Sequence record: OZ035817.1
Origin: Vectrevirus DIJ06P1
Strand: one strand, 5' to 3'
DNA: 44,766 nt
Numbering within the stretch: position 1 is the stretch's first letter; each line of letters begins with the position of its first letter. Under the pieces are notes generated by a model, which ran no database searches, was not told the DNA's origin, and saw only the letters and a program-made list of their open reading frames with translations. Position numbers and translations under genes: made by a program. This document shows positions 1 to 27,530 of this stretch, piece after piece.

Positions 1-29
1 TAATAAGTTCAAGATTTGGAGGGAGAAGC

Positions 30-329
30 GTGAGCGTACACAATAAACATGCAGCTACAGAGGATGAGGTTGGCATTCTGCATGGTGCTATTACCAAAAT
101 CTTCAATAAGAAAGCACAGGCAATACTGGACACTATAGAAGAAGACCCTGATGCAGCATTACATTTAGTGTCTGGTAAGGATATTGGTGCGATGTGTAAG
201 TGGGTTCTTGATAACGGCATTACCGCCACACCTGCTGCACAGCAGGAAGAGTCCAAGTTATCTAAGCGCCTCAAGGCTATCCGAGAGGCATCCAGTGGCA
301 AGATTATTCAGTTTACAAAAGAGGAGTGA
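30..329 (+). CDS. putative terminase small subunit (DNA maturase A)
   Basis: 99-aa ORF with GTG start just downstream of GGAGGGAG; lies immediately upstream of the large terminase as T7 gene 18 does. Positional call only, no motif recognised. Confidence 0.4.
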   Translation: MSVHNKHAATEDEVGILHGAITKIFNKKAQAILDTIEEDPDAALHLVSGKDIGAMCKWVLDNGITATPAAQQEESKLSKRLKAIREASSGKIIQFTKEE

Positions 330-330
330 T

Positions 331-774
331 ATGCATAGATGGTGTGAATCTCAAGGTTATACCATCTTACCTTCTGGTGTCATCCTTTCAAAGGGTGGCA
401 CCCCTCTCAAACCATTCAAGGCGGGTAGGGGTTATTTAGCAGTTAAAATTAAAAATAAAGAAGGTAAATGGCGTAATGTCTATGTTCATCAATTAGTGGC
501 TTATAAGTATTTACCTAAAACTAATAATGAAGTAAACCACAAAGACGGCGATAAGCACAACAATGATGTTAGCAACTTGGAGTGGGTAACAAGAAGCGAG
601 AATAACTATTTAAAATGCAATGGAAATGATAGGAGTGCCTTAAATAGCTATTTAGCAAGATTAAAAGATTGCTTCTTGCAAGGTAAGGGTGTAGCAGAAA
701 CCGCTAGACTTACTGGTAAAAGTGAACCAAGAGTTTCTTCTCTCTTTAAGGAGTGGCGAAATGGCAAAGGCTAG
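331..774 (+). CDS. free-standing HNH homing endonuclease
   Basis: ATG at 331 preceded by GAGGAG; HNH core VNHKDGDKHNNDVSNLEWVTRSEN; AT-rich relative to flanks; 3' end overlaps the terminase start by 14 nt. The six-frame ORF 184..774 is an upstream extension of this frame. Confidence 0.7.
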   Translation: MHRWCESQGYTILPSGVILSKGGTPLKPFKAGRGYLAVKIKNKEGKWRNVYVHQLVAYKYLPKTNNEVNHKDGDKHNNDVSNLEWVTRSENNYLKCNGNDRSALNSYLARLKDCFLQGKGVAETARLTGKSEPRVSSLFKEWRNGKG

Positions 775-2659
775 AGAATCACAGGCAGAGGCATTAAAGC
801 GGTGGGAAAACCTTAAAGAACTACAAGACACTTTTAAATATACAGCGGAAGGTTTGCTTCTCTTTGCAGATACAGTTATTCATAACTTAATTGCAGGCAA
901 CCCTCATCTGATTCGTATGCAGGCTGATATCTTGAAGTTCCTATTTTACGGACACAAGTACCGCCTCATCGAAGCGCCTCGTGGTATCGCTAAGACAACA
1001 CTATCAGCAATCTATACGGTATTCCGTATTATTCATGAACCGCATAAGCGTATCATGGTTGTGTCCCAAAACGCCAAGCGAGCAGAGGAAATCGCAGGTT
1101 GGGTAGTTAAAATCTTCCGTGGCTTAGACTTTCTTGAGTTTATGCTGCCGGATATCTACGCTGGGGACCGTGCATCCGTTAAGGCGTTTGAGATTCATTA
1201 CACCCTACGTGGTAGTGATAAGTCTCCTTCTGTATCCTGTTACTCAATCGAAGCAGGTATGCAGGGTGCTCGTGCTGATATTATTCTAGCGGATGACGTA
1301 GAGTCGATGCAGAATGCTCGTACGGCAGCGGGCCGTGCCTTGCTTGAGGAACTGACTAAGGAGTTTGAATCTATCAACCAGTTTGGGGATATCATTTACC
1401 TTGGTACACCTCAGAACGTAAACTCTATCTACAACAACCTACCTGCTCGTGGTTACTCTGTTCGTATCTGGACTGCGCGTTACCCTTCAGTAGAGCAAGA
1501 GCAATGTTATGGCGACTTCCTTGCACCTATGATTGTTCAAGATATGAAGGACAACCCAGCACTTCGCTCAGGGTACGGGTTGGATGGTAATAGTGGTGCA
1601 CCTTGTGCCCCTGAAATGTATGATGATGAAGTCCTAATTGAGAAGGAAATCTCTCAGGGTGCTGCTAAGTTCCAGCTTCAGTTCATGCTTAACACTCGCA
1701 TGATGGATGCTGACAGATACCCATTACGCCTGAACAATCTAATCTTCACCTCGTTTGGTACAGAGGAAGTCCCTGTGATGCCTACGTGGAGTAATGATTC
1801 CATAAACATCATTGGTGATGCACCTAAGTATGGTAACAAGCCTACGGATTTCATGTACAGACCTGTAGCTCGCCCATACGAATGGGGTGCTGTCTCCCGC
1901 AAGATTATGTATATTGACCCTGCGGGTGGTGGTAAGAACGGAGATGAGACGGGTGTAGCCATCGTATTCCTGCACGGCACATTCATTTATGTGTATCAGT
2001 GCTTTGGTGTACCTGGCGGATACCGAGAGTCGTCCCTGAATCGCATTGTGCAGGCCGCACAGCAGGCGGGTGTTAAAGAGGTATTCATTGAGAAGAACTT
2101 TGGTCATGGCGCGTTTGAGGCGGTAATTAAGCCGTACTTTGAACGAGAGTGGCCTGTAACTCTGGAAGAAGATTACGCCACCGGACAGAAAGAATTGCGT
2201 ATCATTGAGACGCTGGAGCCGCTCATGGCAGCCCATAGGCTTATCTTCAATGCAGAGATGGTGAAGTCAGACTTTGAGTCGGTACAGCACTATCCGCTTG
2301 AACTACGCATGTCCTACAGTCTTTTCAATCAAATGTCGAACATAACGATTGAGAAGAACAGCCTCCGGCACGATGACCGCCTAGACGCCCTGTATGGCGC
2401 TATACGGCAATTAACTTCTCAGATAGACTATGACGAGGTTACACGGATTAATCGCCTCAGAGCGCAGGAGATGCGAGATTACATCCATGCTATGAACACA
2501 CCTCATCTACGCAGGGCAATGCTATATGGGGATTACGGTACTGAGCGAAGAGTGACCAACACTTCCGTAGCGATGCAGCAGCGAGTTTACGGGCAGAACT
2601 ACCGAAATAAATCGGCAAGCAGAAATACACTTTCTGCAAGGATTTCAAGGACTTATTAA
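761..2659 (+). CDS. terminase large subunit (T7 gp19-like)
   Basis: ATG at 761 after AAGGAG; segments such as ADIILADDVE, IYLGTPQN, KFQLQFMLN and DRYPLRLNNL match my recollection of T7 gp19. A GTG at 722 is an alternative start. Confidence 0.9.
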   Translation: MAKARESQAEALKRWENLKELQDTFKYTAEGLLLFADTVIHNLIAGNPHLIRMQADILKFLFYGHKYRLIEAPRGIAKTTLSAIYTVFRIIHEPHKRIMVVSQNAKRAEEIAGWVVKIFRGLDFLEFMLPDIYAGDRASVKAFEIHYTLRGSDKSPSVSCYSIEAGMQGARADIILADDVESMQNARTAAGRALLEELTKEFESINQFGDIIYLGTPQNVNSIYNNLPARGYSVRIWTARYPSVEQEQCYGDFLAPMIVQDMKDNPALRSGYGLDGNSGAPCAPEMYDDEVLIEKEISQGAAKFQLQFMLNTRMMDADRYPLRLNNLIFTSFGTEEVPVMPTWSNDSINIIGDAPKYGNKPTDFMYRPVARPYEWGAVSRKIMYIDPAGGGKNGDETGVAIVFLHGTFIYVYQCFGVPGGYRESSLNRIVQAAQQAGVKEVFIEKNFGHGAFEAVIKPYFEREWPVTLEEDYATGQKELRIIETLEPLMAAHRLIFNAEMVKSDFESVQHYPLELRMSYSLFNQMSNITIEKNSLRHDDRLDALYGAIRQLTSQIDYDEVTRINRLRAQEMRDYIHAMNTPHLRRAMLYGDYGTERRVTNTSVAMQQRVYGQNYRNKSASRNTLSARISRTY

Positions 2660-2680
2660 TTACTGGACACTATAGAAGGA
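2656..2680 (+). promoter_or_regulatory. SP6-type phage RNAP promoter
   Basis: ATTACTGGACACTATAGAAGGA just after the terminase stop; matches the consensus repeated across the window. Confidence 0.7.
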
Positions 2681-2824
2681 AGGCCCAGATAATAAGAGAA
2701 AATAATAGGTAATATATAGGTTAACCTAGGTTATATAGGTATGCCTTAGTATGGGTGTACTCCTGTACACCCTATTCATTACTACCTTACTACCTTACTA
2801 TATTTACATAATAGGAGAGATACA

Positions 2825-3103
2825 ATGGCTAATGATTATAGTAGTCAACCATTAACAGGTAAGTCTAAGAGAAAGCAGGTACAACCTGTAAGTGAAGAAC
2901 TAATGCTTCCGGTAATCAAAAAAGAGGAAGCTAGTAAGAAAAGCAATGCTATTAATGATGCCACCAAATCAGGTAAACAGAAAGGGGCCATGGTGTGCCT
3001 TGAAGTGGAAGGTGGTGTATTGAAGATTGCTATCGCGGTTGATGGCAAAGAAGATTCAGAGTGGAAGTTAGTAACAGCGAAACCAACTGTTATCCCAGTT
3101 TAA
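2825..3103 (+). CDS. hypothetical protein (paralog A of tandem pair)
   Basis: 92-aa ORF; shares SGKQKGAMV...IA(I/V)A block with the next ORF. Confidence 0.5.
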   Translation: MANDYSSQPLTGKSKRKQVQPVSEELMLPVIKKEEASKKSNAINDATKSGKQKGAMVCLEVEGGVLKIAIAVDGKEDSEWKLVTAKPTVIPV

Positions 3104-3121
3104 GAGAAGGAGGAAGATTAC

Positions 3122-3415
3122 ATGGCTAAATATGGTACTACAGGTTCTGTTACTGGTCAGGCTTTTCGAGTAAAAGCAGTACAAACTATTGCAACGGCAA
3201 TCCCTATGCCTGTTGTTGCTGAAGCAGACCTTAAGAAGAAAGATCACCCTATCAACATCAAACACCTGTCAGGTAAGCAGAAAGGCGCAATGGTTGCTGT
3301 TGAGAGAGATGACACAACCATGCATATTGCTGTTGCACGTGGTAGTGAACCAACAGACTCTTGGGATGTAACTGGTATGGAAGAGGACGCTGTCACTCCA
3401 GCAGGTGGAGAATAA
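3122..3415 (+). CDS. hypothetical protein (paralog B of tandem pair)
   Basis: 97-aa ORF after GAAGGAGGAAG RBS; same SGKQKGAMV motif as 2825..3103. Confidence 0.5.
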   Translation: MAKYGTTGSVTGQAFRVKAVQTIATAIPMPVVAEADLKKKDHPINIKHLSGKQKGAMVAVERDDTTMHIAVARGSEPTDSWDVTGMEEDAVTPAGGE

Positions 3416-3759
3416 TGCTTAACAAATACTTCAAGCGTCGTGAGTTCGCTTGCCGTTGTGGTTGCGGTACATCCACCGTTGATGCTGAATTACTACAGGT
3501 AGTCACAGATGTGCGTGAGCACTTTGGTTCTCCTGTAGTTATCACTTCGGGGCACCGCTGTGCTAAGCACAATGCTAATGTAGGAGGAGCTAAGAACTCC
3601 ATGCATCTTACTGGTAAGGCTGCTGACATTAAGGTACGAGGCATCTTACCTTCTGATGTACATAAGTATCTTACTGATAAGTACCAAGGCAAATATGGGA
3701 TTGGTAAGTATAACTCCTTTACTCATATTGATGTACGTGACGGGTGTGCACGATGGTAG
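3415..3759 (+). CDS. peptidase M15-type peptidoglycan hydrolase (candidate endolysin)
   Basis: ATG overlaps the upstream stop (TAATG); SGHRCAKHNANVGGAKNSMHLTGKAADI fits the SG(Y/H)R...GG...S.H..G.A.D zinc-peptidase signature as I recall it. Confidence 0.65.
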   Translation: MLNKYFKRREFACRCGCGTSTVDAELLQVVTDVREHFGSPVVITSGHRCAKHNANVGGAKNSMHLTGKAADIKVRGILPSDVHKYLTDKYQGKYGIGKYNSFTHIDVRDGCARW

Positions 3760-3867
3760 GTTGTGTTGCATGGTGTGAACGCATGGTTGCTAAGGCTTCA
3801 GAGGAAGGCAACTATGAAGATTGGCAGAACTACTCAACTTTATTAGCTCAATGGAAAGGGAGATGCA

Positions 3868-4017
3868 ATGAAAAAGCTGTTCAAATCTAAGAAGGTTGTA
3901 GGTGCACTAGTTGCATTGGCAATTGCTCTTGTTTCTGTAGGTCTTGGTGTAGACCTTGGCTCTGGCACGGAATCCTCTGTGACAGACGTGGTCTGCCAAG
4001 TGATCACCTGTGAATAA
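3868..4017 (+). CDS. small membrane protein, 49 aa
   Basis: ATG at 3868; hydrophobic core VVGALVALAIALVSVGLGV; below the ORF-track size cutoff. Confidence 0.3.
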   Translation: MKKLFKSKKVVGALVALAIALVSVGLGVDLGSGTESSVTDVVCQVITCE

Positions 4018-4231
4018 GTTTCTAGAAGTGCTGGCAGGTCTTATTGGCCTGCTTGTCTCTGCTAAGAAGAAACAAGAAGAGAAGGAGGCACAAAGTGAAG
4101 CGAATCATGTTAGTGACAATCCTGCTGATTGGTTCGCTGACCACTTCCGGGTGTCAGCAGGCGTTACCAGAGAAAGCAATGGTGAAACCTCTGAGGCCGA
4201 CGCTGACGGAAGTTTACGAGGTAGACGATAA
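4010..4231 (+). CDS. putative i-spanin (Rz-like), unusually short
   Basis: N-terminal hydrophobic segment FLEVLAGLIGLLVSA then charged region; overlaps a lipoprotein ORF in another frame. Confidence 0.35.
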   Translation: MNKFLEVLAGLIGLLVSAKKKQEEKEAQSEANHVSDNPADWFADHFRVSAGVTRESNGETSEADADGSLRGRR

Positions 4232-4304
4232 GGTCTGCTTTAGTAAGCCTGACGCTACAAAATTAGGTTTGTATATTCTTTCGCTGGAACGCGGATATAA
4301 TTAA
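4095..4304 (+). CDS. putative o-spanin (Rz1-like lipoprotein)
   Basis: GTG at 4095 (or ATG at 4107) after GAAGGAGG; signal peptide plus lipobox LTTSGC; starts inside the 4010..4231 ORF in a different frame. Confidence 0.5.
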   Translation: MKRIMLVTILLIGSLTTSGCQQALPEKAMVKPLRPTLTEVYEVDDKVCFSKPDATKLGLYILSLERGYN

Positions 4305-4333
4305 TACATAGCTTTATGTATCAGTGTCTTACG

Positions 4334-4356
4334 ATTTACTGGACACTATAGAAGAG
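4334..4356 (+). promoter_or_regulatory. SP6-type phage RNAP promoter
   Basis: ATTTACTGGACACTATAGAAGAGG about 80 nt upstream of tailspike 1. Confidence 0.75.
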
Positions 4357-4435
4357 GTAAGATAGCGCCGTTCTTTTGAGCGGCCTATTACTAGCCAATC
4401 TTCATAGGGAGGGTTGGAAAGTAATAGGAGATAGC

Positions 4436-6334
4436 ATGGCTAAATTAACCAAACCTAATACTGAAGGAATCTTGCATAAAGGACAATCTTTGTATGAGTA
4501 CCTTGATGCGAGAGTTTTAACATCAAAGCCGTTTGGTGCTGTAGGTGACGCCACTACTGATGATACGGAGGTTATAGCTGCTTCATTAAACTCTCAGAAA
4601 GCTGTCACAATCTCAGACGGTGTATTCTCTAGCTCTGGTATTAATAGTAATTACTGTAACTTAGACGGTAGAGGTAGTGGGGTGCTAAGTCACCGTTCCA
4701 GTACAGGTAACTACTTAGTATTTAACAATCCACGTACAGGTCGCTTAAGTAATATTACGGTAGAAAGTAATAAGGCGACTGATACAACTCAGGGACAGCA
4801 GGTATCTCTTGCCGGTGGAAGTGATGTTACTGTAAGTGACGTTAACTTCTCAAACGTTAAAGGTACTGGTTTCAGTTTAATCGCATACCCTAATGATGCG
4901 CCACCTGATGGACTTATGATTAAAGGTATTCGAGGTAGCTATTCAGGCTATGCTACTAATAAGGCAGCTGGATGCGTACTTGCTGACTCCTCAGTTAACT
5001 CCCTCATAGATAACGTCATTGCTAAGAACTACCCTCAGTTCGGAGCAGTAGAGTTGAAAGGTACAGCCAGTTACAACATAGTCAGTAATGTTATAGGGGC
5101 AGATTGCCAGCATGTAACTTACAACGGCACTGAAGGGCCAATAGCTCCTTCTAATAACCTTATCAATGGGGTAGTGGCTAATAATCCTAAGTATGCAGCG
5201 GTTGTTGCAGGCAAAGGTAGTACGAACTTAATATCAGATGTGCTCGTAGATTACTCAACCTCTGATGCTAGGCAGGCTCATGGTGTTACAGTAGAGGGTT
5301 CTGATAACGTCATAAATAATGTGCTTATGTCAGGATGTGATGGTACTAACTCTTTAGGACAAGGGCAGACTGCTACAATTGCACGCTTTATAGGTACAGC
5401 TAATAACAACTATGCGTCTGTATTTCCTAGCTACAGTGCTACAGGTGTTATTACTTTCGAATCCGGCTCTACCCGTAACTTCGTAGAGGTAAAGCACCCT
5501 GGCAGGAGAAACGACCTTCTCAGTTCTGCTAGTACTATTGACGGTGCAGCTACTATTGACGGCACTAATAATAGTAACGTAGTGCACGCACCTGCCTTAG
5601 GGCAGTACATAGGTAGTATGTCAGGTAGGTTCGAATGGCGGATTAAGTCCATGTCACTCCCTTCAGGCGTTCTTACTTCTGCTGATAAGTACAGAATGCT
5701 TGGGGATGGTGCTGTATCATTAGCTTTAGGTGGGGGTACTTCTTCTCAAGTTCGCCTATTTACTTCTGATGGTACTTCTCGGACAGTGTCCCTCACCAAC
5801 GGTAACGTGCGTCTTTCTACCAGTAGCACAGGCTATTTGCAGTTAGGTGCTGATGCAATGACCCCAGACAGTACTGGTACATACGCATTAGGTTCCGCCA
5901 GCCGAGCATGGTCTGGCGGTTTTACTCAAGCAGCATTCACTGTTACCTCAGATGCTCGGTGTAAAACAGAACCTCTCACTATCTCAGATGCCTTACTGGA
6001 TGCTTGGTCTGAAGTTGACTTTGTGAAGTTTCAGTATTTGGATCGTGTTGAGGAGAAGGGTGCAGACTCAGCTAGATGGCACTTCGGTATCATCGCTCAG
6101 CGAGCTAAGGAGGCTTTCGAACGTCACGGTATAGATGCACATCGCTATGGCTTTTTGTGCTTCGACAGTTGGGATGATGTATACGAGGAAGATGCAGATG
6201 GCTCTCGTAAACTGATTACACCAGCAGGTTCCCGCTACGGTATTCGTTACGAGGAAGTGCTGATATTAGAGGCTGCGTTGATGCGGAGGACTATTAAGCG
6301 TATGCAGGAAGCACTAGCTTCCCTGCCTAAGTAA
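4436..6334 (+). CDS. tailspike 1, beta-helix with C-terminal intramolecular chaperone (S74-like) domain
   Basis: ATG at 4436 after GGAG; Gly/Ser/Thr/Asn-rich repeats typical of a right-handed beta-helix; C-terminus SDARCK...WHFGIIAQRAKEAF resembles auto-cleaving chaperone domains. The ORF-track start at 4376 is probably too early. Confidence 0.8.
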   Translation: MAKLTKPNTEGILHKGQSLYEYLDARVLTSKPFGAVGDATTDDTEVIAASLNSQKAVTISDGVFSSSGINSNYCNLDGRGSGVLSHRSSTGNYLVFNNPRTGRLSNITVESNKATDTTQGQQVSLAGGSDVTVSDVNFSNVKGTGFSLIAYPNDAPPDGLMIKGIRGSYSGYATNKAAGCVLADSSVNSLIDNVIAKNYPQFGAVELKGTASYNIVSNVIGADCQHVTYNGTEGPIAPSNNLINGVVANNPKYAAVVAGKGSTNLISDVLVDYSTSDARQAHGVTVEGSDNVINNVLMSGCDGTNSLGQGQTATIARFIGTANNNYASVFPSYSATGVITFESGSTRNFVEVKHPGRRNDLLSSASTIDGAATIDGTNNSNVVHAPALGQYIGSMSGRFEWRIKSMSLPSGVLTSADKYRMLGDGAVSLALGGGTSSQVRLFTSDGTSRTVSLTNGNVRLSTSSTGYLQLGADAMTPDSTGTYALGSASRAWSGGFTQAAFTVTSDARCKTEPLTISDALLDAWSEVDFVKFQYLDRVEEKGADSARWHFGIIAQRAKEAFERHGIDAHRYGFLCFDSWDDVYEEDADGSRKLITPAGSRYGIRYEEVLILEAALMRRTIKRMQEALASLPK

Positions 6335-6419
6335 GCAACAGGCAGTGCGTAAGCACTGCTTTTCACGCAACTTTTCTTAAAGGTTATCATGGTGGTAGCC
6401 TTTCAGAAAAGGAGGGTAC

Positions 6420-8471
6420 ATGCTACAAAGATTAGGGGCTTCCATGGTGAAGTTCAAGAGTAAACTCGCTGGTTCCATCGAACGTATACTCTCAGACAAG
6501 TTAATGGATACTGTAAGCGTTAAAGACTTTGGCGCTAAAGGAGATGGTATCACAGATGATACTGCTGCTTTCAAAGCAGCAATAACTTGTGGCGCATCTA
6601 GGGTATTAGTACCTGCAGGCAGGTATGTGATTACTGACACACTTTCTTTGCCATCTGGGGTCTGGTTATTTGGTGAAGGTGTTGACTATTGGGACACCTA
6701 TCGTCCAGACGAGGGTAGGCTTATTAAGTCATGGAGTAAAGGAACGCACCTTGTGTTCACTGGTAGTGGGTCTAAAAACAAGCAATTTCTTAATATCTCT
6801 AATGAACGCCCAACAAAGACAATAAATGGAGTAACTTGCTCTTTTACCGACTTCACTAATAGTGATGCACAAGTAACAGAACCTGCTACACCACGTAGTA
6901 TGAGTATTGCTGTATCAGTACAGGCAGGCAGTGGCTTACGCGATCTTCGTATTATGGTAAACAATGAAGGTATCTCTGGTTACAATGACTTTGTTTCTAC
7001 AAACAAGCTAGGTGACAACTGGGATATTGGGTTGCATGTATATGACAGCTCAGATGCTGTAATTGATAATGTGCAAGTTGTTGGCTATTGGAAGGTTGCA
7101 GGTACACTCTTAACGGAGAACGACGGCTCCATCACAATGCGTGGTAATCCAGAGAAGACACTATTTAATAAGTTCTACACTCAAGGTATCAGAGGTTTAC
7201 TTATTAGGAATAGCCCGCAAGTAGATGTAGTATCTCAAGAGTCAGCAACCAAGTTAACCATTAAAGCGAATGCTACTTCCCGTATATTAGCACAAAATGG
7301 TTTTCGAGTAGCAGGTAGTACTACGATACATAGATGGACTAGTGTTACAAGACAAGGAGACACTTATGTATTAGATGGCATCACACCTGAGTTACCTTCT
7401 GCTTCTGGCCTCGGGGTTGTTCGTTTCCCATCTATGGGTAACAATTGGTCTGGTACAGTGTTCAACAATACTGTTGCTGTGTCCTTTGAGCACTCATCCG
7501 GTAGAACCTCAAGACAACTAGGACTTCCTGTATCTTTTGCTATGGAGATTGATGGCTTCCCTTGTCGTAACCTCAAATTCATAAACTTCAAGGCACAGAC
7601 TTCTTACGATGAAGGAAATACATTGTTTGGTGATATGCGCGATGCCAAGTTTGTGGCTAGCGAGTTCGAGAATGGTAGGCTGATTGCGTATGATTTGTCT
7701 CAGACTCAAGGGTATACTGGTAATATGCGGTCTGCTGTGTCTGACATGCAGTTTCATTCCACTAATATTGAAGGCTTCACACCACGTGATTTCTTCTATG
7801 ACCTAGGACATTTTCCTACTTCTTATACTGATGGTTCTTTTATCATGAAGCATTGGCGAGAAAAGGATTTACAGGTACAATGGTATAATGGTAAAGCATT
7901 CATCCATCTACATGAAGATGATGGCCGTGTAACACTTACCAGTAAAGGCGGTCTAGATTTGTATAACTTTAGTTCTACAAAAGACGTGACGTTCAAGGGT
8001 CGCAACTTTGTATTCAAAAACGATGCAAGTGAAGACGTATTGAAGTGGTTTGGCGGTTCAGGGAATATCTCTACGAAAGGAAACATCTCGCCTATGGTAG
8101 ATGGGGTTGCCTCTCTGGGTACAAATTCCTATCGCTGGGGCGCAGTGCATTCAGTAAATGGGACGTTACAAACCTCTGACGGTAGGCTAAAGGAGATCCA
8201 CGATATTAAACAAGAAGAACTTGATGCGGGGATTGCATTATCAGCAAGTCTAATCAAGTATCGTTGGTATGGAGAAGAAAAGTTCCACTTTGGTTGTATT
8301 GCCCAAGAGGTAATGTTAATCATGGAGAAACATAATCTAGACCCATTACAGTATGGAATGGTGCAGTATGATGAAGAGGCAGACATCTTTAGTGTAAACT
8401 ATGCTGAATTGAACAGCTTCTGCATCGCAGCTCTGTCTAGGAGGTTGAATGCCATTAATCAAATCAGTTAA
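6420..8471 (+). CDS. tailspike 2, pectate-lyase-like beta-helix with C-terminal intramolecular chaperone domain
   Basis: ATG after AAAGGAGGG; VKDFGAKGDGITDDTAAFKAAI is a pectate-lyase-superfamily N-terminal motif; C-terminus SDGRLK...FHFGCIAQEV parallels tailspike 1. Confidence 0.8.
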   Translation: MLQRLGASMVKFKSKLAGSIERILSDKLMDTVSVKDFGAKGDGITDDTAAFKAAITCGASRVLVPAGRYVITDTLSLPSGVWLFGEGVDYWDTYRPDEGRLIKSWSKGTHLVFTGSGSKNKQFLNISNERPTKTINGVTCSFTDFTNSDAQVTEPATPRSMSIAVSVQAGSGLRDLRIMVNNEGISGYNDFVSTNKLGDNWDIGLHVYDSSDAVIDNVQVVGYWKVAGTLLTENDGSITMRGNPEKTLFNKFYTQGIRGLLIRNSPQVDVVSQESATKLTIKANATSRILAQNGFRVAGSTTIHRWTSVTRQGDTYVLDGITPELPSASGLGVVRFPSMGNNWSGTVFNNTVAVSFEHSSGRTSRQLGLPVSFAMEIDGFPCRNLKFINFKAQTSYDEGNTLFGDMRDAKFVASEFENGRLIAYDLSQTQGYTGNMRSAVSDMQFHSTNIEGFTPRDFFYDLGHFPTSYTDGSFIMKHWREKDLQVQWYNGKAFIHLHEDDGRVTLTSKGGLDLYNFSSTKDVTFKGRNFVFKNDASEDVLKWFGGSGNISTKGNISPMVDGVASLGTNSYRWGAVHSVNGTLQTSDGRLKEIHDIKQEELDAGIALSASLIKYRWYGEEKFHFGCIAQEVMLIMEKHNLDPLQYGMVQYDEEADIFSVNYAELNSFCIAALSRRLNAINQIS

Positions 8472-8667
8472 GCAAAGTGCTGTACGCCAGAACACAGAAG
8501 AGCTTATTCAATCAGGACGTGACCCTAAGCAAGCCTATGCGATTGCCAAGGTATACAACGTCGTGCTATGAAGAAACTTTCTGCATCTTCTGCGTAAGCA
8601 GGTTAATATCTTAGTATAAACAAGGGCAGACTTAGGTTTGTCCTTAGTGTATTCCAAAGGAGGTAAC

Positions 8668-8796
8668 ATGCTGAAAGATGGTTGGGTTTCATATGACCCT
8701 ACAGACCCTAAGAATTGGCTACAGGTTATCGCTATAGCTTGTGCAGGTAGCCTATTGGCTGCCCTGATGTATTCATTATGGATGTACACAAAGTAA
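8668..8796 (+). CDS. small membrane protein, 42 aa
   Basis: Strong RBS AAGGAGG 5 nt before ATG; one hydrophobic helix; last ORF before the non-coding terminus region. Confidence 0.3.
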   Translation: MLKDGWVSYDPTDPKNWLQVIAIACAGSLLAALMYSLWMYTK

Positions 8797-9461
8797 CCAA
8801 AGTCAAAATTTTGATGTAGGCGTGTGTCAGCTCTCTCGCCCTCGCCCTCGCCGGGTTGCCCCCATAGGGTGGCCTGAGGGAATCCGTCGAAGACGGGTAG
8901 GGCTGATGTACTCCTTCGCTAGTACAAGGGAGGCGGGGAATGCCTAGGAAGCGCTAGGGCACGCCTTAGTATTGGACAAGGTGATTGCCTTAGTGAAGCC
9001 TCTTAGTACATTCCTGAGGCCATTCAGGGCGTTTATGAGGCATTGACAGGGTGGATGGGTGTGGGCTATCTGTTCGTTTCGCTACGCTTCACTCACTGCT
9101 CCTCACTTCGTTCGTCGCTGCGGTAGCCTGATGTGTACCTTAGGTTATTACTTGATGGATAGCTTAGGTTATAGCTTAGTGACCTACCTTAGTTATAACC
9201 TTAGTGCATAGCTTAGTATCAGCTTAGTAGTGTACCTTAGTAAGTCTTAGTGTCTTCTCTTAGTGATTGCACATGCAAGCATGTAAGATGCCATTAGGTC
9301 GCGGTCGGTAGACCGCTAAAGAAGGAGAGTAGTAATAAGATGCAGTAGGAGGAACACCAGAAGCCTCGCCAACCTAGCCTATCCTAGCTCTGTATCTATT
9401 GCTTTTCCTTAGTCTCACATGATAGACAACCTATCTTATTCCTAGTGATGATAACTTAGTG

Positions 9462-9490
9462 TTGACAAGATAATCTTAGTGTAATACTAT
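9462..9490 (+). promoter_or_regulatory. candidate host sigma70 early promoter
   Basis: TTGACA, 17-nt spacer, TACTAT; upstream of the first early ORF. Confidence 0.45.
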
Positions 9491-9562
9491 GCATCACGTA
9501 GGCGGTGCTGAGGCACCTAGTAGCCAGCTAGTAAGGCATACGAAGAGACTAGCGCTTACATT

Positions 9563-9575
9563 GCTCTTTAACAAT
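9563..9575 (+). repeat. GCTCTTTAACAAT 13-mer, copy 1 of 3
   Basis: Exact 13-mer repeated at 10108 and 10320 in early non-coding leaders. Confidence 0.6.
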
Positions 9576-9633
9576 TTGCTTAGTGTAACCTATGTATGCC
9601 GTGGTTAATTACTTATTGAATGAGGGATTAACT

Positions 9634-9813
9634 ATGACATTAAACAACCGTGAATTATCCGTTCTCTTCACTCTGTTGTGCTACATGATTCGTAACAACG
9701 AATTGCTTACAGATGACGAGTTGGCACTGTATCACCGCTTTCTTAACGAAGGTTGGACCGATACAGTTAATCAATACCGTAACATGATAGATGAGTTGAG
9801 GGAGGGTAAATAA
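9634..9813 (+). CDS. hypothetical early protein
   Basis: ATG at 9634 after GAGGG; the ORF-track start at 9592 has no RBS. Confidence 0.4.
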   Translation: MTLNNRELSVLFTLLCYMIRNNELLTDDELALYHRFLNEGWTDTVNQYRNMIDELREGK

Positions 9814-10037
9814 TGTATCAACATGAGGTATTCTTTGAATCAGCTAGCGAAGCTATTCGCTTCCGTGATGATATGATGCAAGCTGGTGTAGGCGTTGATG
9901 TGTATCACTATTTGATAGATTACGACACTGAATATCACCGAGTTACCTTAGTATCTGAGTATGACAACCAAGTCATTACTGAGTATCTAGGCAGTGAAGA
10001 TTACGATTACGATGAAGTAATCACGACAAATCTCTAA
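9813..10037 (+). CDS. hypothetical acidic early protein
   Basis: ATG after GGAGGG, overlapping the upstream stop; acidic, Tyr-rich. Confidence 0.5.
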   Translation: MYQHEVFFESASEAIRFRDDMMQAGVGVDVYHYLIDYDTEYHRVTLVSEYDNQVITEYLGSEDYDYDEVITTNL

Positions 10038-10045
10038 ATTAACTG

Positions 10046-10074
10046 TTGACAGCCACGGCATACAAGGTTACATT
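10046..10074 (+). promoter_or_regulatory. candidate host sigma70 early promoter
   Basis: TTGACA, 17-nt spacer, TACATT; same architecture as T7 A-type early promoters. Confidence 0.45.
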
Positions 10075-10107
10075 AAGCATCAAGACGGCGACGTCTTTAA
10101 ACATCCC

Positions 10108-10120
10108 GCTCTTTAACAAT
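10108..10120 (+). repeat. GCTCTTTAACAAT 13-mer, copy 2 of 3
   Basis: Exact repeat, about 60 nt downstream of the 10046 promoter. Confidence 0.6.
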
Positions 10121-10319
10121 ACGGTTTGTGTCTTGATAGGCTAACTAACTAACTAAGGTAATTATCATGAAAGGTTTAATTTGTGTAGAACGTATGGTCA
10201 ATGGTAAACTTGAAATATTACCACTGGAAAACCAATCTAGCTTCAAAGAGTGGTATGGCTGTTTCTCACTGATTTAAGGTAAAGGCTGGCACTAGTCAGC
10301 CTATCAAGGCGCAAACCAA

Positions 10320-10332
10320 GCTCTTTAACAAT
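10320..10332 (+). repeat. GCTCTTTAACAAT 13-mer, copy 3 of 3
   Basis: Exact repeat, about 100 nt upstream of ocr. Confidence 0.6.
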
Positions 10333-10428
10333 TTGGATGGTAGCTTCTTAGTCTGGATAGGTTAAACCTAGGAGATTCTCTTGAGTCTCCTATAATGTAA
10401 CCTAACTAACTAAATGAGGATTAATAAC

Positions 10429-10788
10429 ATGGCTATGTCTAATATGACTTACTCTCAGGTTTACAACAACGCTCATGCTGCATTAGTTGAACGTATCTGG
10501 AATGATGCTATTGATTGTATTGATAACGCGCATGATGCAATCCATGATGTGGCGGATAGTGCTGTACCAATCTATTATGCTGACATCTTCTCCGTGATGG
10601 CGAGTGAAGGAATTGATCATTTCTTCGAAGACTCCGGCCTGATGCCAGACACTAAGGATGTAACGGTAGTATTGCAAGCCCGTATCTATGAGCAACTCAC
10701 AATTGATCTATGGGAACGTGTTCAGTATATGATTGTTGAATACATCAACTCCGCCGAATATTTAGAAGAAGAAGAAGAGGAAGAATAA
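10429..10788 (+). CDS. ocr: Ocr-like DNA mimic (anti-restriction, T7 gp0.3 homolog)
   Basis: ATG at 10429 after GAGGA; [42 protein letters not shown] and [15 protein letters not shown] match T7 Ocr as I recall it; poly-Glu C-terminus. Confidence 0.85.
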
Positions 10789-10893
10789 TATGGAAAAGCT
10801 ATACAACTTTATCTTTTCAGACGGTGTAACCCTGAAGTGTTCCCTACGATTCGCACAAATTCGTGAGGAAGTACTAGGCACTACATACAAACT

Positions 10894-10918
10894 ATTTAGC
10901 TGACACTATAAGAGAAGG
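10894..10918 (+). promoter_or_regulatory. variant phage-promoter-like sequence
   Basis: ATTTAGCTGACACTATAAGAGAAGG; position +1 is A rather than G, so function is uncertain. Confidence 0.35.
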
Positions 10919-10979
10919 CTTAACAAGGCGTTGCTACGGTAGCGCCTGATTAAACTTTCACTTACTAGGAGTTAAGACT

Positions 10980-11207
10980 ATGGATTTAGATAGCATCATT
11001 ATGGCATTTGCTCTTATTGGCTTAAGCTGGTGCTCCTATCACCTTTACCGTGAGTTCTTATTTGATAAAGCTAAACGCAAACTAAGAAAGGAAGGCGGTA
11101 ATTACCTTTGTGTAAGAGATGGGCTTGTAGAATACATTGCACCTAACGGCACGGAATGCGCCATTAGCAAAGATGCATTTATAGAAACGTGGCATTACAT
11201 CAAGTAA
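10980..11207 (+). CDS. hypothetical early protein with N-terminal hydrophobic segment
   Basis: ATG after AGGAG; 75 aa. Confidence 0.5.
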   Translation: MDLDSIIMAFALIGLSWCSYHLYREFLFDKAKRKLRKEGGNYLCVRDGLVEYIAPNGTECAISKDAFIETWHYIK

Positions 11208-11241
11208 CTAGCCTATAGCCTACCTGAGTGGGCTATGTGAT

Positions 11242-11264
11242 ATTTACTTACACTATATAAGGTG
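11242..11264 (+). promoter_or_regulatory. variant phage-promoter-like sequence
   Basis: ATTTACTTACACTATATAAGG; degenerate around +1. Confidence 0.3.
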
Positions 11265-11270
11265 ACTATT

Positions 11271-12155
11271 ATGACTACTGAAAACACCCTCCTGTCTGTT
11301 CGTGAAGCTGCAACCGCTGAGATCAAGCAACACTTAGACAATATCGGCACTTCTTACATCAAAGTTGGCGCTTGTCTTAATGAGTTACGCGGTGACTTTG
11401 AAGGTCAAAAAGACTTTTTGGCTTATGTAGAATCAGAATTTGGAATCAAGAAAGCACAATGTTACAAGCTGATGAGTGTAGCCCGTGTCTTTGAAGGCGA
11501 TGATCGCTTTAAAGGCGTGGCGATGCGTGTAATGCTGGCGCTTGTTCCTTTCGCTGATGAAAATATAATCATGGAGAAGGCCGCAGAACTCGCCGCAAAT
11601 GGCAAGCTGGACACTAATGCCGTAAACGCCCTGATTGAACCTAAGAAAGAGTCAAAGGCCGAAACGGTACAATCTAAGGCTGAGACAGTAAAACCGCAGG
11701 AGAACGCGACTGAGTCCGCAGAATTACAGGAAATGCAAGCGCCGCAGGTAGTGCCACCCGCGAGCGAGCAGGAGGCCGACGAATCAGCACCTTGGGAAGA
11801 GGAAAGCAAGCCGGAAGCGCCTAAGGCCGCGCCACTGGATAACACGGCTAACACCGAGAATGCCACTATTGCTGGTCTGCTGGCACAAATTAAAGCACTG
11901 ACCGAGCAATTACAGGTAGCTAATGACCGCATTGCCTCCTTAAGCAGCGCACGCGAAAGCAAGAAAGCAGCCGCACCTATGCTGCCGCAGTTCAAATCTT
12001 CCTGCTTCTACGCTCGCTTAGGCTTGAGCGCTGAGGAGGCAACGAAGAAAACAGCAGTTAACAAGGCACGCCGCGAACTGGTTAAGCTAGGCTATGGTGA
12101 AGGCCATGAAGCATGGGCCTTAATCTCTGAGGCAGTAGAAGAATTAACTAAGTAA
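11271..12155 (+). CDS. hypothetical early protein with Ala/Glu/Lys-rich low-complexity linker
   Basis: ATG at 11271 (GTG at 11262 possible); folded N-terminal part, long low-complexity middle, helical C-terminus; sits where T7 has host-takeover genes but shows no kinase motifs. Confidence 0.55.
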   Translation: MTTENTLLSVREAATAEIKQHLDNIGTSYIKVGACLNELRGDFEGQKDFLAYVESEFGIKKAQCYKLMSVARVFEGDDRFKGVAMRVMLALVPFADENIIMEKAAELAANGKLDTNAVNALIEPKKESKAETVQSKAETVKPQENATESAELQEMQAPQVVPPASEQEADESAPWEEESKPEAPKAAPLDNTANTENATIAGLLAQIKALTEQLQVANDRIASLSSARESKKAAAPMLPQFKSSCFYARLGLSAEEATKKTAVNKARRELVKLGYGEGHEAWALISEAVEELTK

Positions 12156-12218
12156 CCTTATCGGTGGCATCTTCTTAGGTGTCACCTATTAAGGTTTCTT
12201 TCACTAGGAGTAAACAAG

Positions 12219-14846
12219 ATGCAAGACTTACACGCTATTCAACTTCAACTTGAAGAAGAAATGTTTAACGGCGGTATCCGTCGCTTTGAAGCGGACCAAC
12301 AGCGCCAGATTGCATCCGGTAATGAATCAGACACGGCATGGAATCGCCGCTTATTGTCCGAGTTAATTGCGCCAATGGCTGAAGGTATTCAGGCATACAA
12401 GGAAGAGTATGAAGGTAAAAGAGGCCGTGCACCGCGTGCATTAGCTTTCATTAACTGCGTAGAAAATGAAGTGGCAGCGTATATCACGATGAAAATCGTT
12501 ATGGATATGCTGAACACGGATGTAACCTTGCAGGCTATAGCCATGAATGTAGCTGACCGCATTGAGGACCAAGTACGTTTTAGCAAGCTGGAAGGTCACG
12601 CCGCCAAATACTTTGAAAAAGTTAAGAAGTCACTTAAGGCAAGTAAGACTAAATCATATCGCCATGCGCACAACGTAGCGGTAGTGGCTGAGAAGTCAGT
12701 AGCTGACCGTGACGCTGATTTCTCCCGCTGGGAGGCATGGCCTAAAGACACCTTGCTGCAAATTGGGATGACCTTGCTTGAAATCTTAGAGAATAGCGTA
12801 TTCTTCAACGGGCAACCTGTCTTCCTCCGCACCTTGCGCACTAATGGCGGCAAACATGGTGTTTACTACCTACAGACTAGTGAACACGTAGGTGAGTGGA
12901 TAACTGCATTTAAAGAACATGTAGCGCAACTTAGTCCAGCCTATGCACCTTGCGTTATTCCTCCGCGTCCGTGGGTATCACCCTTTAACGGTGGGTTTCA
13001 TACTGAGAAAGTAGCAAGCCGTATTCGTCTGGTAAAAGGCAATCGTGAGCACGTCCGCAAGCTGACCAAAAAGCAAATGCCAGCGGTTTACAAGGCTGTT
13101 AACGCTTTGCAGGCGACTAAGTGGCAGGTTAATAAAGAGGTTTTACAGGTTGTGGAGGACGTTATACGTCTAGACCTCGGCTATGGTGTACCTTCCTTTA
13201 AACCACTCATCGACCGTGAGAACAAGCCAGCTAATCCGGTGCCGTTAGAGTTCCAGCACCTGCGAGGCCGTGAACTGAAAGAAATGCTTACGCCGGAACA
13301 ATGGCAAGCCTTTATCAACTGGAAAGGTGAATGTACTAAGCTGTACACCGCTGAAACTAAGCGCGGAAGCAAATCGGCGGCAACCGTTCGCATGGTCGGT
13401 CAGGCCCGTAAATATAGCCAGTTCGACGCAATCTACTTCGTGTATGCACTGGACAGCCGCAGCCGTGTATACGCGCAATCTAGCACACTCTCACCGCAAT
13501 CAAATGACTTGGGCAAGGCCTTGCTCCGTTTTACCGAAGGGCAGCGTCTTGATAGCGCTGAGGCGCTTAAGTGGTTTTTGGTGAACGGGGCTAATAACTG
13601 GGGTTGGGATAAGAAAACTTTTGACGTGCGCACTGCTAACGTGCTGGATAGTGAATTTCAAGACATGTGCCGCGACATTGCAGCCAACCCGCTGACCTTC
13701 ACTCAATGGGTGAATGCTGATTCCCCTTATGGCTTCCTTGCATGGTGCTTTGAATATGCGCGTTATCTGGATGCACTGGACGAAGGAACGCAAGACCAAT
13801 TCATGACGCACCTACCCGTCCATCAAGATGGTAGTTGCTCTGGTATCCAGCACTATAGCGCGATGTTACGAGATGAAGTAGGTGCGAAAGCAGTAAACCT
13901 TAAGCCTTCTGACTCCCCTCAAGATATTTATGGCGCGGTTGCGCAGGTTGTTATCCAGAAGAATTACGCCTACATGAATGCAGACGACGCAGTGACTTTC
14001 ACATCCGGAAGCGTCACACTTACAGGTGCAGAACTGCGTAGCATGGCTAGTGCGTGGGATATGATAGGAATCACTCGCGGATTGACCAAAAAGCCCGTAA
14101 TGACACTACCTTATGGCAGCACACGTCTAACCTGCCGTGAATCAGTGATTGATTATATCGTTGATTTAGAAGAAAAAGAGGCCCAACGGGCTATTGCGGA
14201 AGGGCGTACCGCCAATCCTGTACACCCTTTTGATAATGACCGTAAAGACAGCCTGACACCTAGCGCAGCTTATAACTATATGACAGCTTTAATCTGGCCT
14301 TCTATTTCGGAAGTGGTTAAAGCTCCTATAGTGGCAATGAAAATGATTCGTCAGCTTGCCCGTTTCGCAGCTAAAAGGAATGAAGGCTTAGAGTATACCC
14401 TGCCTACTGGCTTCATCTTGCAACAAAAGATTATGGCTACTGATATGCTCCGCGTATCTACTTGCTTGATGGGAGAAATCAAGATGAGTCTACAGATTGA
14501 AACGGACGTAGTAGATGAAACGGCAATGATGGGCGCTGCTGCTCCTAACTTTGTGCATGGTCATGATGCCAGTCACCTTATCTTAACGGTCTGCGACCTT
14601 GTTGATAAAGGGATTACATCTATCGCAGTAATTCATGATTCTTTTGGCACTCATGCAGGCCGTACAGCCGATCTACGCAACAGCTTAAGGGCAGAAATGG
14701 TGAAAATGTACCAAGGCCGTAATGCACTGCAAAGCCTGCTAGATGAGCACGAAGAACGCTGGTTAGTTGATACAGGAATCCAAGTACCAGAGCAAGGGGA
14801 GTTTGACCTTAACGAAATCTTAGTTTCAGACTATTGCTTCGCATAA
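12219..14846 (+). CDS. single-subunit DNA-directed RNA polymerase, SP6 type
   Basis: 875 aa; hallmark blocks [24 protein letters not shown] and IHDSFGTH; very close to SP6 RNAP as I recall it, consistent with the SP6-type promoters. Confidence 0.95.
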
Positions 14847-27026: not shown

Positions 27027-27530
27027 ATGTCACACTATGAATGTAAGAAGTGTCATAAGCGTTATGATTACTGTACTTGTGGTCAAGAGAAAACATCTTT
27101 TAAAGTTGGAGACAAGGTATTTCGTAATGAAAAAGATTCTATTCCTTGGAATCAATACTGCAAAGAAGCTGGTATTGACCCTGATAGCCCTGTAACCATA
27201 GATGATATTGATGGCATTAACTTGTGCTTTCGTGAGGTGAGGGGTACAGGTTGGGATTCCAAAAAATTCAAACTTGCATCTGATAAGTTAGACAACAATA
27301 TGGTAACTCAGCCTAAGCACTACGAGTTCTTTGATGGTGTAGAGGCAATCACTATCATTGCCCGCAGTATGACTGAAAAGCAATTCGCTGGGTACTGCAT
27401 GGGTAATGCCCTTAAGTATCGCCTGCGTGCAGGTAAGAAGTTCAATACTGAAGAAGACTTGAAGAAGGCAGACTATTATAAAGAGTTATTCCAGAAGCAT
27501 CGTCACGAATGTATTGATGAGGATATTTAA
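27027..27530 (+). CDS. Zn-ribbon protein with DUF3310-like C-terminal domain
   Basis: ATG at 27027 after GGAGG; N-terminal CKKCHKRYDYCTC; C-terminal PKHYEF...GNALKYRLRAGKK...EDLKKADYY pattern; AT-rich gene. Confidence 0.5.
   Translation: MSHYECKKCHKRYDYCTCGQEKTSFKVGDKVFRNEKDSIPWNQYCKEAGIDPDSPVTIDDIDGINLCFREVRGTGWDSKKFKLASDKLDNNMVTQPKHYEFFDGVEAITIIARSMTEKQFAGYCMGNALKYRLRAGKKFNTEEDLKKADYYKELFQKHRHECIDEDI

Follow-up and report, generated by a model that had tools for sequence, protein, structure and literature searches.

The predicted 119-aa product of positions 10429-10788 in the genome of Vectrevirus DIJ06P1 (record OZ035817.1, of which all 44,766 nucleotides were analysed and are here called the window) is very probably a functional anti-restriction DNA mimic of the Ocr family. 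The gene is of the T7/SP6 type and is carried in the early region of a genome whose backbone belongs to the relatives of SP6. An exchange of this module between T7-like and SP6-like lineages, as suggested in the initial annotation, is upheld by an Ocr phylogeny that is incongruent with the backbone, but the exchange is old and recurrent and not peculiar to DIJ06P1.

The ocr gene and its similarity to T7 gene 0.3

The ocr ORF is intact, starting with ATG at 10429 and ending with TAA at 10786-10788, and after a gap of 1 nt the TAA is followed by the ATG of the next ORF, of 37 aa (Table 1). A longer ORF from an ATG at 10414 was rejected as the start of ocr because it overlaps the Shine-Dalgarno sequence, and a 70-aa minus-strand ORF with a TTG start located entirely within ocr (10483-10695) was treated as spurious.

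The product had been described at the outset as nearly collinear with T7 Ocr, with low identity in a real alignment named as the outcome that would speak against this. Aligned to T7 gp0.3 (PDB 1S7Z; PF08684), residues 1-117 pair with residues 1-117 gap-free and 76 of the 117 are identical, which at 65% is not low; across residues 1-96 the ungapped identity is 72%. The two proteins are 119 and 117 aa long and have no internal gaps relative to each other. The quoted protein motifs were all found in place, MAMSNMTY at 1-8, a 13-residue block at 51-63, LMPDTKDV at 71-78 and a 15-residue block at 82-96, as was the acidic tail, which consists of seven Glu. Two central blocks of 25 and 15 residues are identical to T7 Ocr and the acidic C-terminal tail is common to both, whereas the window protein has diverged in helix 1 (residues 9-35) and in the C-terminal helix (97-112). 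A phmmer search against the PDB chain sequences gave the T7 gene 0.3 protein/Ocr 1s7z_A with an E-value of 9.3e-41, T7 gene 0.3/Ocr sequences being the sole matches among all PDB chains. The Pfam family PF08684 'DNA mimic ocr' was matched with 140.1 bits against a cut-off of 25 (residues 3-99 on profile positions 1-97 of 101) and PHROG 2568 'ocr-like anti-restriction' with an E-value of 9e-47. By these matches the predicted product is an Ocr-family protein, with a similarity far above chance. At the nucleotide level ocr is 66-71% identical to its T7 counterpart, and the DNA match to T7 covers 10426-10716, with none outside the ocr ORF. A single-sequence AlphaFold2 model of the window Ocr was helical throughout and of low confidence (pLDDT 53, pTM 0.30). 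Because this model is unreliable the fold assignment leans on the 65% identity to the solved 1S7Z, from which we infer an all-alpha Ocr fold resembling bent B-DNA.

Acidic residues and dimer interface

The window Ocr contains 26 Asp/Glu and 4 Lys/Arg residues and has a net charge of -22, compared with 34 acidic and 6 basic residues and a net charge of -28 in T7 Ocr, a difference of eight acidic residues. Of the 34 acidic positions in T7, 22 are kept in the window Ocr and 12 are lost, while two new ones are gained. Fifteen Ocr homologues, which represent nine genera or unclassified lineages, were aligned and a column was considered conserved when acidic in at least 13 of them; the window Ocr keeps 15 of the 17 columns so defined. 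The conserved acidic residues, whose absence had been put forward as the other way in which the assignment could fail, are thus largely present. Roberts et al. found that about 16 carboxylates per monomer had to be neutralised before the binding to M.EcoKI dropped to the level of DNA, and put the acidic residues conserved in Ocr homologues at only about 15 (PMC3439906). Judged from its composition, the acidity of the window Ocr is well inside this published envelope of about 15-16 residues. The residues F54, A58 and L82 are likewise identical in the window Ocr; in T7 Ocr F54 and L82 are located at the dimer interface (PMC10802264), and interface roles are described for all three (PMC10802264, PMC7261183).

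Genomic backbone and position of ocr

By protein and nucleotide identity the backbone of DIJ06P1 is that of a Vectrevirus (K1-5/K1E-like phages, relatives of SP6; Autographiviridae, Molineuxvirinae). The 4-kb neighbourhood of ocr is 92-96% identical to many Vectrevirus genomes (EEc4, 6948, AAPEc6, K1-5), and the core proteins are 79-93% identical to those of SP6 and 25-36% to those of T7 or K1F. The RNA polymerase, encoded downstream of ocr at 12219-14846, is 86% identical to that of SP6 and 36% to that of T7, and about 13 promoters of SP6/K1-5 type (ATTTAnnnGACACTATAGAAG; also written CACTATAGAAG-type) occur on the + strand of the window, in agreement with the SP6-type polymerase and promoters reported initially.

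The assembly covers a complete genome, about 44.7 kb in size, in circularly permuted form, with position 1 of K1-5 aligning to 8836. This puts ocr about 1.6 kb inside the physical left end, as in K1-5 (1575) and SP6 (1637), and the late and tailspike genes at 1-8500 really represent the right end of the genome. A pair of tailspike genes is found there on the + strand, the first (4436-6334) encoding 632 aa with a Peptidase_S74 chaperone domain and the second (6420-8471) encoding 683 aa with a pectate-lyase-like domain and S74. At megablast level the 4.5-kb tailspike region is covered to at most 62% by any phage record, so that the two receptor-binding genes seem to be newly combined. Directly 5′ of the large terminase gene is an HNH endonuclease ORF (PF13392; 147 aa, 331-774, + strand), a counterpart of which is absent from SP6, T7 and K1F.

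Host promoters and elements of the early leader

Ocr had been placed behind candidate sigma-70 promoters, and two such sites with a perfect TTGACA and a 17-nt spacer, identical in K1-5 and with positional counterparts in SP6, were indeed found 5′ of the gene (Table 1). Around the second of them, 10035-10083 stands out as an island of 86% identity to SP6 1475-1524, which occupies the syntenic site 5′ of the SP6 ocr. The annotated T7 promoters A1, A2 and A3 were recovered by the same scan used as a control. Because the number of sigma-70-like sites in the region, 8 against 7.1 in shuffled sequences, is not above chance, the support for the promoters is their positional conservation together with the A1-A3 control. 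No phage-type promoter occurs between the left end at 8836 and 10894, and no terminator-like site occurs between the sigma-70 candidates and ocr. Since ocr is located 5′ of the first phage-type promoter it is read as a host-transcribed early gene; by position it is a class I (early) gene of the leading end, predicted to be transcribed by the host RNA polymerase and located 5′ of the phage RNA polymerase gene. With T7 gene 0.3 it has in common that it is the first early gene of any size to follow the host promoters and a BoxA.

Table 1. Coordinates of ocr and of the sequence elements surrounding it in the window
Feature	Position	Strand	Remarks
Candidate sigma-70 early promoter, TTGACA-17-TACTAT	9462..9490	+	Identical in K1-5 at 609; SP6 positional counterpart at 576
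BoxA copy 1 (GCTCTTTAACAA)	9563..9574	+	Perfect consensus match
Candidate sigma-70 early promoter, TTGACA-17-TACATT, nearest 5′ of ocr	10046..10074	+	Identical in K1-5 at 1193
BoxA copy 2 (GCTCTTTAACAA)	10108..10119	+	Perfect consensus match
BoxA copy 3 (GCTCTTTAACAA), about 100 nt 5′ of ocr	10320..10331	+	Perfect consensus match
RNA hairpin with internal loops, then CTAACTAACTAA (stops in all three frames) and Shine-Dalgarno	10348..10412	+	Conserved fold
Shine-Dalgarno GAGGA, 8 nt 5′ of the ocr start codon	10416..10420	+	
ocr CDS, T7/SP6-type ('type 1') Ocr allele, 119 aa	10429..10788	+	Homology, composition, conserved residues
37-aa ORF, K1-5 gene 4 homologue (phrog_11746); right homology arm of the ocr cassette	10790..10903	+	About 96-100% identity to K1-5
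First phage-RNAP (SP6/K1-5-type) promoter after the left end, ATTTAGCTGACACTATAAGAGAAG; 3′ of ocr	10894..10917	+	

The leader contains three copies of BoxA, for which the gamma-proteobacterial (rrn-type) consensus is GYTCTTTAANA (PMC5725501). All three are on the + strand, and no further copy of GCTCTTTAACAA occurs in the 44.7 kb beyond the early leader. T7 has the same BoxA at 813 in its leader, 3′ of promoter A3 and about 110 nt 5′ of gene 0.3, and the box is found as well in K1F (669), in SP6 (656, 926 and a variant at 1536) and in three copies in K1-5. This distribution suggests that BoxA serves Nus-factor antitermination of early host-polymerase transcripts in both subfamilies.

The hairpin 5′ of ocr was more stable than all 200 shuffled sequences (z = -3.76), and its RNAalifold consensus structure in seven Vectrevirus/Zindervirus leaders has 26 pairs, of which four are changed on both sides. 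With the Proteus PM116 and Klebsiella leaders added, the sequences were misaligned and RNAalifold gave no structure. By analogy with T7 R0.3 the hairpin may be an RNase III-type processing site, and it constitutes the left homology arm of the ocr cassette. The leader part at 10036-10170 has no significant fold of its own (z +0.88). An Rfam search of 8500-12300 in E-value mode returned only two sub-threshold matches to miRNA families (10903-10974), which were taken as chance. The combination of CTAACTAACTAA and Shine-Dalgarno is itself repeated, at 10141-10158 and 10402-10419. A 25-nt inverted repeat with 88% complementarity (10123-10147 and 10293-10317), whose arms could pair at long range in the early RNA, brackets a tiny ORF of 36 aa (10167-10277) without a PHROG match.

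Ocr types and their exchange between subfamilies

The identities of Ocr and of the RNA polymerase do not rank the phages in the same order. Between the window and T7 the identity is 65% for Ocr against 36% for the polymerase, between the window and SP6 60% against 86%, between SP6 and T7 77% against 36%, and between T7 and K1F 50% against 64%. For K1-5 and K1F the Ocr identity is 82%, set beside a polymerase identity between the subfamilies of about 35% that was taken from the window-K1F and SP6-K1F pairs and not from the K1-5 polymerase. Ocr is the most T7-like protein of the window (70% over a 100-aa tblastn alignment). Second is a DUF3310 protein (27027-27530, + strand) corresponding to SP6 gp24 and to the C-terminal part of T7 gp1.7, with 64% identity to T7 over 73 aa and 63% to SP6; all other proteins shared with T7 are at most 35% identical. 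The DUF3310 protein may itself be an exchanged or a highly constrained module, since it is the only other protein with a similarity to T7 far above that of the backbone.

Three Ocr types, each with members from both Studiervirinae and Molineuxvirinae, were obtained in a neighbour-joining tree of 15 Ocr proteins with bootstraps of 82-100. Type 1 unites T7 and SP6 (bootstrap 98) with the window and K1E KY435490 (100 for this pair), the whole clade being supported by 82. Type 2 comprises K1F, EcoDS1, Przondovirus and Berlinvirus together with K1-5, K1E AM084415 and CrRp3, and type 3 comprises KpnP_VR702, PST_H2 and PRF-SP3 (bootstrap 100). SP6 gp5 (Zindervirus) is syntenic with the window ocr, has the same BoxA/hairpin/Shine-Dalgarno leader and is a type 1 Ocr of 119 aa beginning with MAMSNMTY; it is only 60% identical to the window Ocr despite the 79-93% of the backbone, and is closer to T7 Ocr. 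The gp3 proteins of K1-5 and K1E (AM084415) and the gp0.3 of K1F are of type 2 (MERNANAYY...EALYNDV), acidic and of the same Pfam family, and share with the window the core FxVMAxxGID...DxGLxPDTKDV...LQARIYE. Type 2 is 50% identical to the window Ocr and 82-86% to Ocr of the T7-like Kayfunavirus, while in K1-5 and K1E gp3 occupies the same slot as the window ocr between flanks that are about 100% identical. Type 3, common to a Zindervirus, an unclassified Molineuxvirinae phage and a Kayfunavirus, resembles an intragenic chimera with a type 2 N-terminal half (MERNANAYY, HEIFTVMAADGID) and a T7-type (type 1) C-terminal half marked by a 13-residue block and EY.

The boundaries of the exchanged segment are sharp. 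The DNA of the window and K1-5 is about 100% identical over 9736-10424 and again from 10771, and 30-70% (about 55%) identical across the ocr ORF; the left junction falls directly after the Shine-Dalgarno sequence (GAGGATTAA) and the right junction in the shared poly-Glu codons before the stop. The same clean swap of ocr separates two genomes both named 'Vectrevirus T147P1' and also two K1E records. A second ORF-sized swap relative to K1-5 is seen in gene 5 (10980-11207, + strand; 75 aa, phrog_21597, function unassigned), with 37-52% identity inside the ORF and 87-100% in the flanks. At conserved Ocr residues 51% of the codons are identical between the window and T7, compared with 47% for the polymerase between the window and SP6 and a baseline of 39% for the polymerase between the window and T7. 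On this measure the synonymous sites of ocr are close to saturation between the window and T7, and an exchange with T7 is not recent. The comparisons would make the ocr slot an exchange hot spot, at which enterobacterial phages of the T7-like and SP6-like groups trade at least three deeply diverged types in the form of ORF-sized cassettes, the flanks being conserved; direction and timing of the transfers are deduced. A classical example of cassette replacement at the 0.3 locus is that of T3, a relative of T7 in which the same slot is occupied by the gp0.3 SAM lyase, which also counters type I restriction and BREX. The T3 protein is not homologous to Ocr and acts enzymatically, not by DNA mimicry.

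Distribution and annotation of ocr

By tblastn against 50,697 phage records Ocr was found in 571 records. The window allele occurs in 45 of the records with 89-97% identity, all of them Vectrevirus-type genomes of 43.6-45.9 kb, and among the 50,697 records no identities fell between 89% and the approximately 67-70% of T7 and of Yersinia and Salmonella relatives. No close T7-like donor of the allele, above about 70% and outside Vectrevirus, was present in the same set. Vectrevirus phages with the same allele include K1E KY435490, EC120, 6948, Sem1-4, EEc4, AAPEc6, VEc3, LL11 and ACG-C91 among others; in position and flanks they agree with the window, and they differ from it only by a few substitutions and in the poly-Glu tail, whose length and composition vary. 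In the 90% cluster that includes the window Ocr there are 145 members, encoded on contigs of about 43-45 kb, and an identical 119-aa protein is present at NCBI under WP_048901937.1 and HDT3156466.1, both labelled 'hypothetical protein'.

The window ocr is an already known gene, an annotated ocr being carried by dozens of K1-5/K1E/SP6-type phages. In many carriers of the allele the gene bears the label 'protein Ocr', 'ocr-like anti-restriction' or 'Overcome classical restriction gp0.3', SP6 gp5 and K1-5 gp3 are annotated as ocr-like in RefSeq, and ocr is annotated at the corresponding position in SP6 and in essentially all Vectrevirus/Zindervirus genomes. Because of this prior annotation across the K1-5/K1E/SP6-type phages the finding of ocr in DIJ06P1 is correct but ordinary. 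SP6 gp5 is named as a putative anti-restriction protein by Scholl et al. 2004 as cited in PMC4837284, and the distribution of Ocr is credited to the same authors as cited in PMC2731889. In several GenBank records (for example KMB14, CrRp3, PST_H2 and mutPK1A2) ocr is mis-annotated as 'protein kinase', a label that probably stems from T7 deletion strains with a fusion of genes 0.3 and 0.7 such as that described in PMC7261183.

Discussion

In the mechanism proposed, ocr would be among the first genes to enter the cell and be transcribed by the host RNA polymerase from the sigma-70 promoters near 9462 and 10046. The three BoxA elements on this transcript would probably recruit Nus factors against Rho termination, and RNase III might process it at the hairpin just 5′ of ocr. 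By homology to T7 gp0.3 the acidic, all-helical Ocr should dimerise through the F54/A58/L82 interface, and the dimer would mimic about 24 bp of bent B-DNA and competitively fill the DNA groove of type I R-M enzymes. The affinity of T7 Ocr for M.EcoKI is about 50-fold above that of DNA (PMC3439906), and T7 Ocr inhibits type I R-M as well as BrxX/PglX of BREX (PMC3439906, PMC7261183, PMC11317158). From T7 Ocr an inhibition of type I R-M by the window Ocr can be inferred, and BrxX/PglX of BREX is probably blocked as well. Ocr is also detectable by sensors such as PARIS, which represents a cost to the phage (PMC10802264).

A homologue of Ocr whose main role lies outside anti-restriction, for instance in inhibiting the host RNA polymerase or another DNA-binding defence, with restriction evasion being secondary, is considered unlikely. 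T7 Ocr does bind E. coli RNA polymerase, the T7 Ocr sequence occurs in PDB entries 6r9b and 6r9g, and the interaction is the subject of Ye et al. 2020 as cited in PMC13005862; DNA mimics are promiscuous, as is seen from the inhibition of BREX by Ocr (PMC7261183), and 12 of the acidic positions of T7 are lost in the window allele. Against such a role, the dimer interface is kept, as are 15 of the 17 acidic columns conserved in the family, and a total of 26 acidic residues is well above the approximately 15-16 suggested by mutagenesis (PMC3439906). SP6 gp5 was moreover proposed to explain growth irrespective of the type I systems of the host (Scholl 2004, as cited in PMC4837284).

The origin of the allele admits two further readings. 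Inheritance by descent only, with Ocr ancestral to T7-like and SP6-like phages and its similarity to T7 maintained by strong purifying selection without exchange, appears very improbable. It would account for an ocr in the same early-leader slot 5′ of the polymerase gene in T7, K1F, SP6, K1-5 and the window, for a BoxA common to all leaders compared and for the near saturation of synonymous sites, but not readily for alleles of 50% identity between flanks of about 100% identity within one genus and even within same-named species. It is further at odds with a window-SP6 Ocr identity far below that of the backbone when SP6 and T7 share 77%, and with tree groups that cross the subfamilies with high bootstrap, the small tree being already incongruent with the backbone. 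Ocr tolerates many mutations (PMC3439906), and extreme constraint is therefore unlikely. That DIJ06P1 itself took gene 0.3 directly and recently from a T7-like phage, which would make it a fresh and unusual recombinant, is given almost no credence: the N-terminal MAMSNMTY and the long central blocks match T7 residue for residue and the DNA similarity stops at the ORF, but the identity to T7 is just 65% for the protein and 66-71% for the DNA, the allele is present at 89% identity or more in 45 records of Vectrevirus size with a gap down to about 67-70%, and the 145 members of the 90% cluster are encoded on contigs of about 43-45 kb.

A more far-reaching reading, put forward tentatively and with considerable doubt, is that the ocr slot of Vectrevirus holds a long-lived polymorphism of functionally different Ocr types 1 and 2 (with type 3 in other genera), shuffled between the subfamilies as ORF-exact cassettes and kept by heterogeneous host defences. 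The BoxA/hairpin/Shine-Dalgarno leader on one side and the poly-Glu tail and gene 4 on the other would act as homology arms; type I R-M families and BREX would be the targets, and PARIS-like sensors of Ocr would exert counter-selection. The polymorphism and the boundaries of the cassettes are seen directly in the genomes compared, and the types may differ in function, as is proposed here.

For DIJ06P1 the standard early anti-restriction gene of the genus is confirmed, which is of use for annotation and, in phage therapy, for predicting the host range where strains carry type I R-M or BREX. More generally ocr is a clean case of ORF-exact allele replacement, both between near-identical genomes and across subfamilies. 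The two T147P1 genomes, like the window and K1-5, form a natural isogenic pair with which the Ocr types could be compared in the defences they defeat or trigger. If the polymorphism is indeed one of function, the Ocr allele of a phage would predict which defences are overcome and which are triggered.
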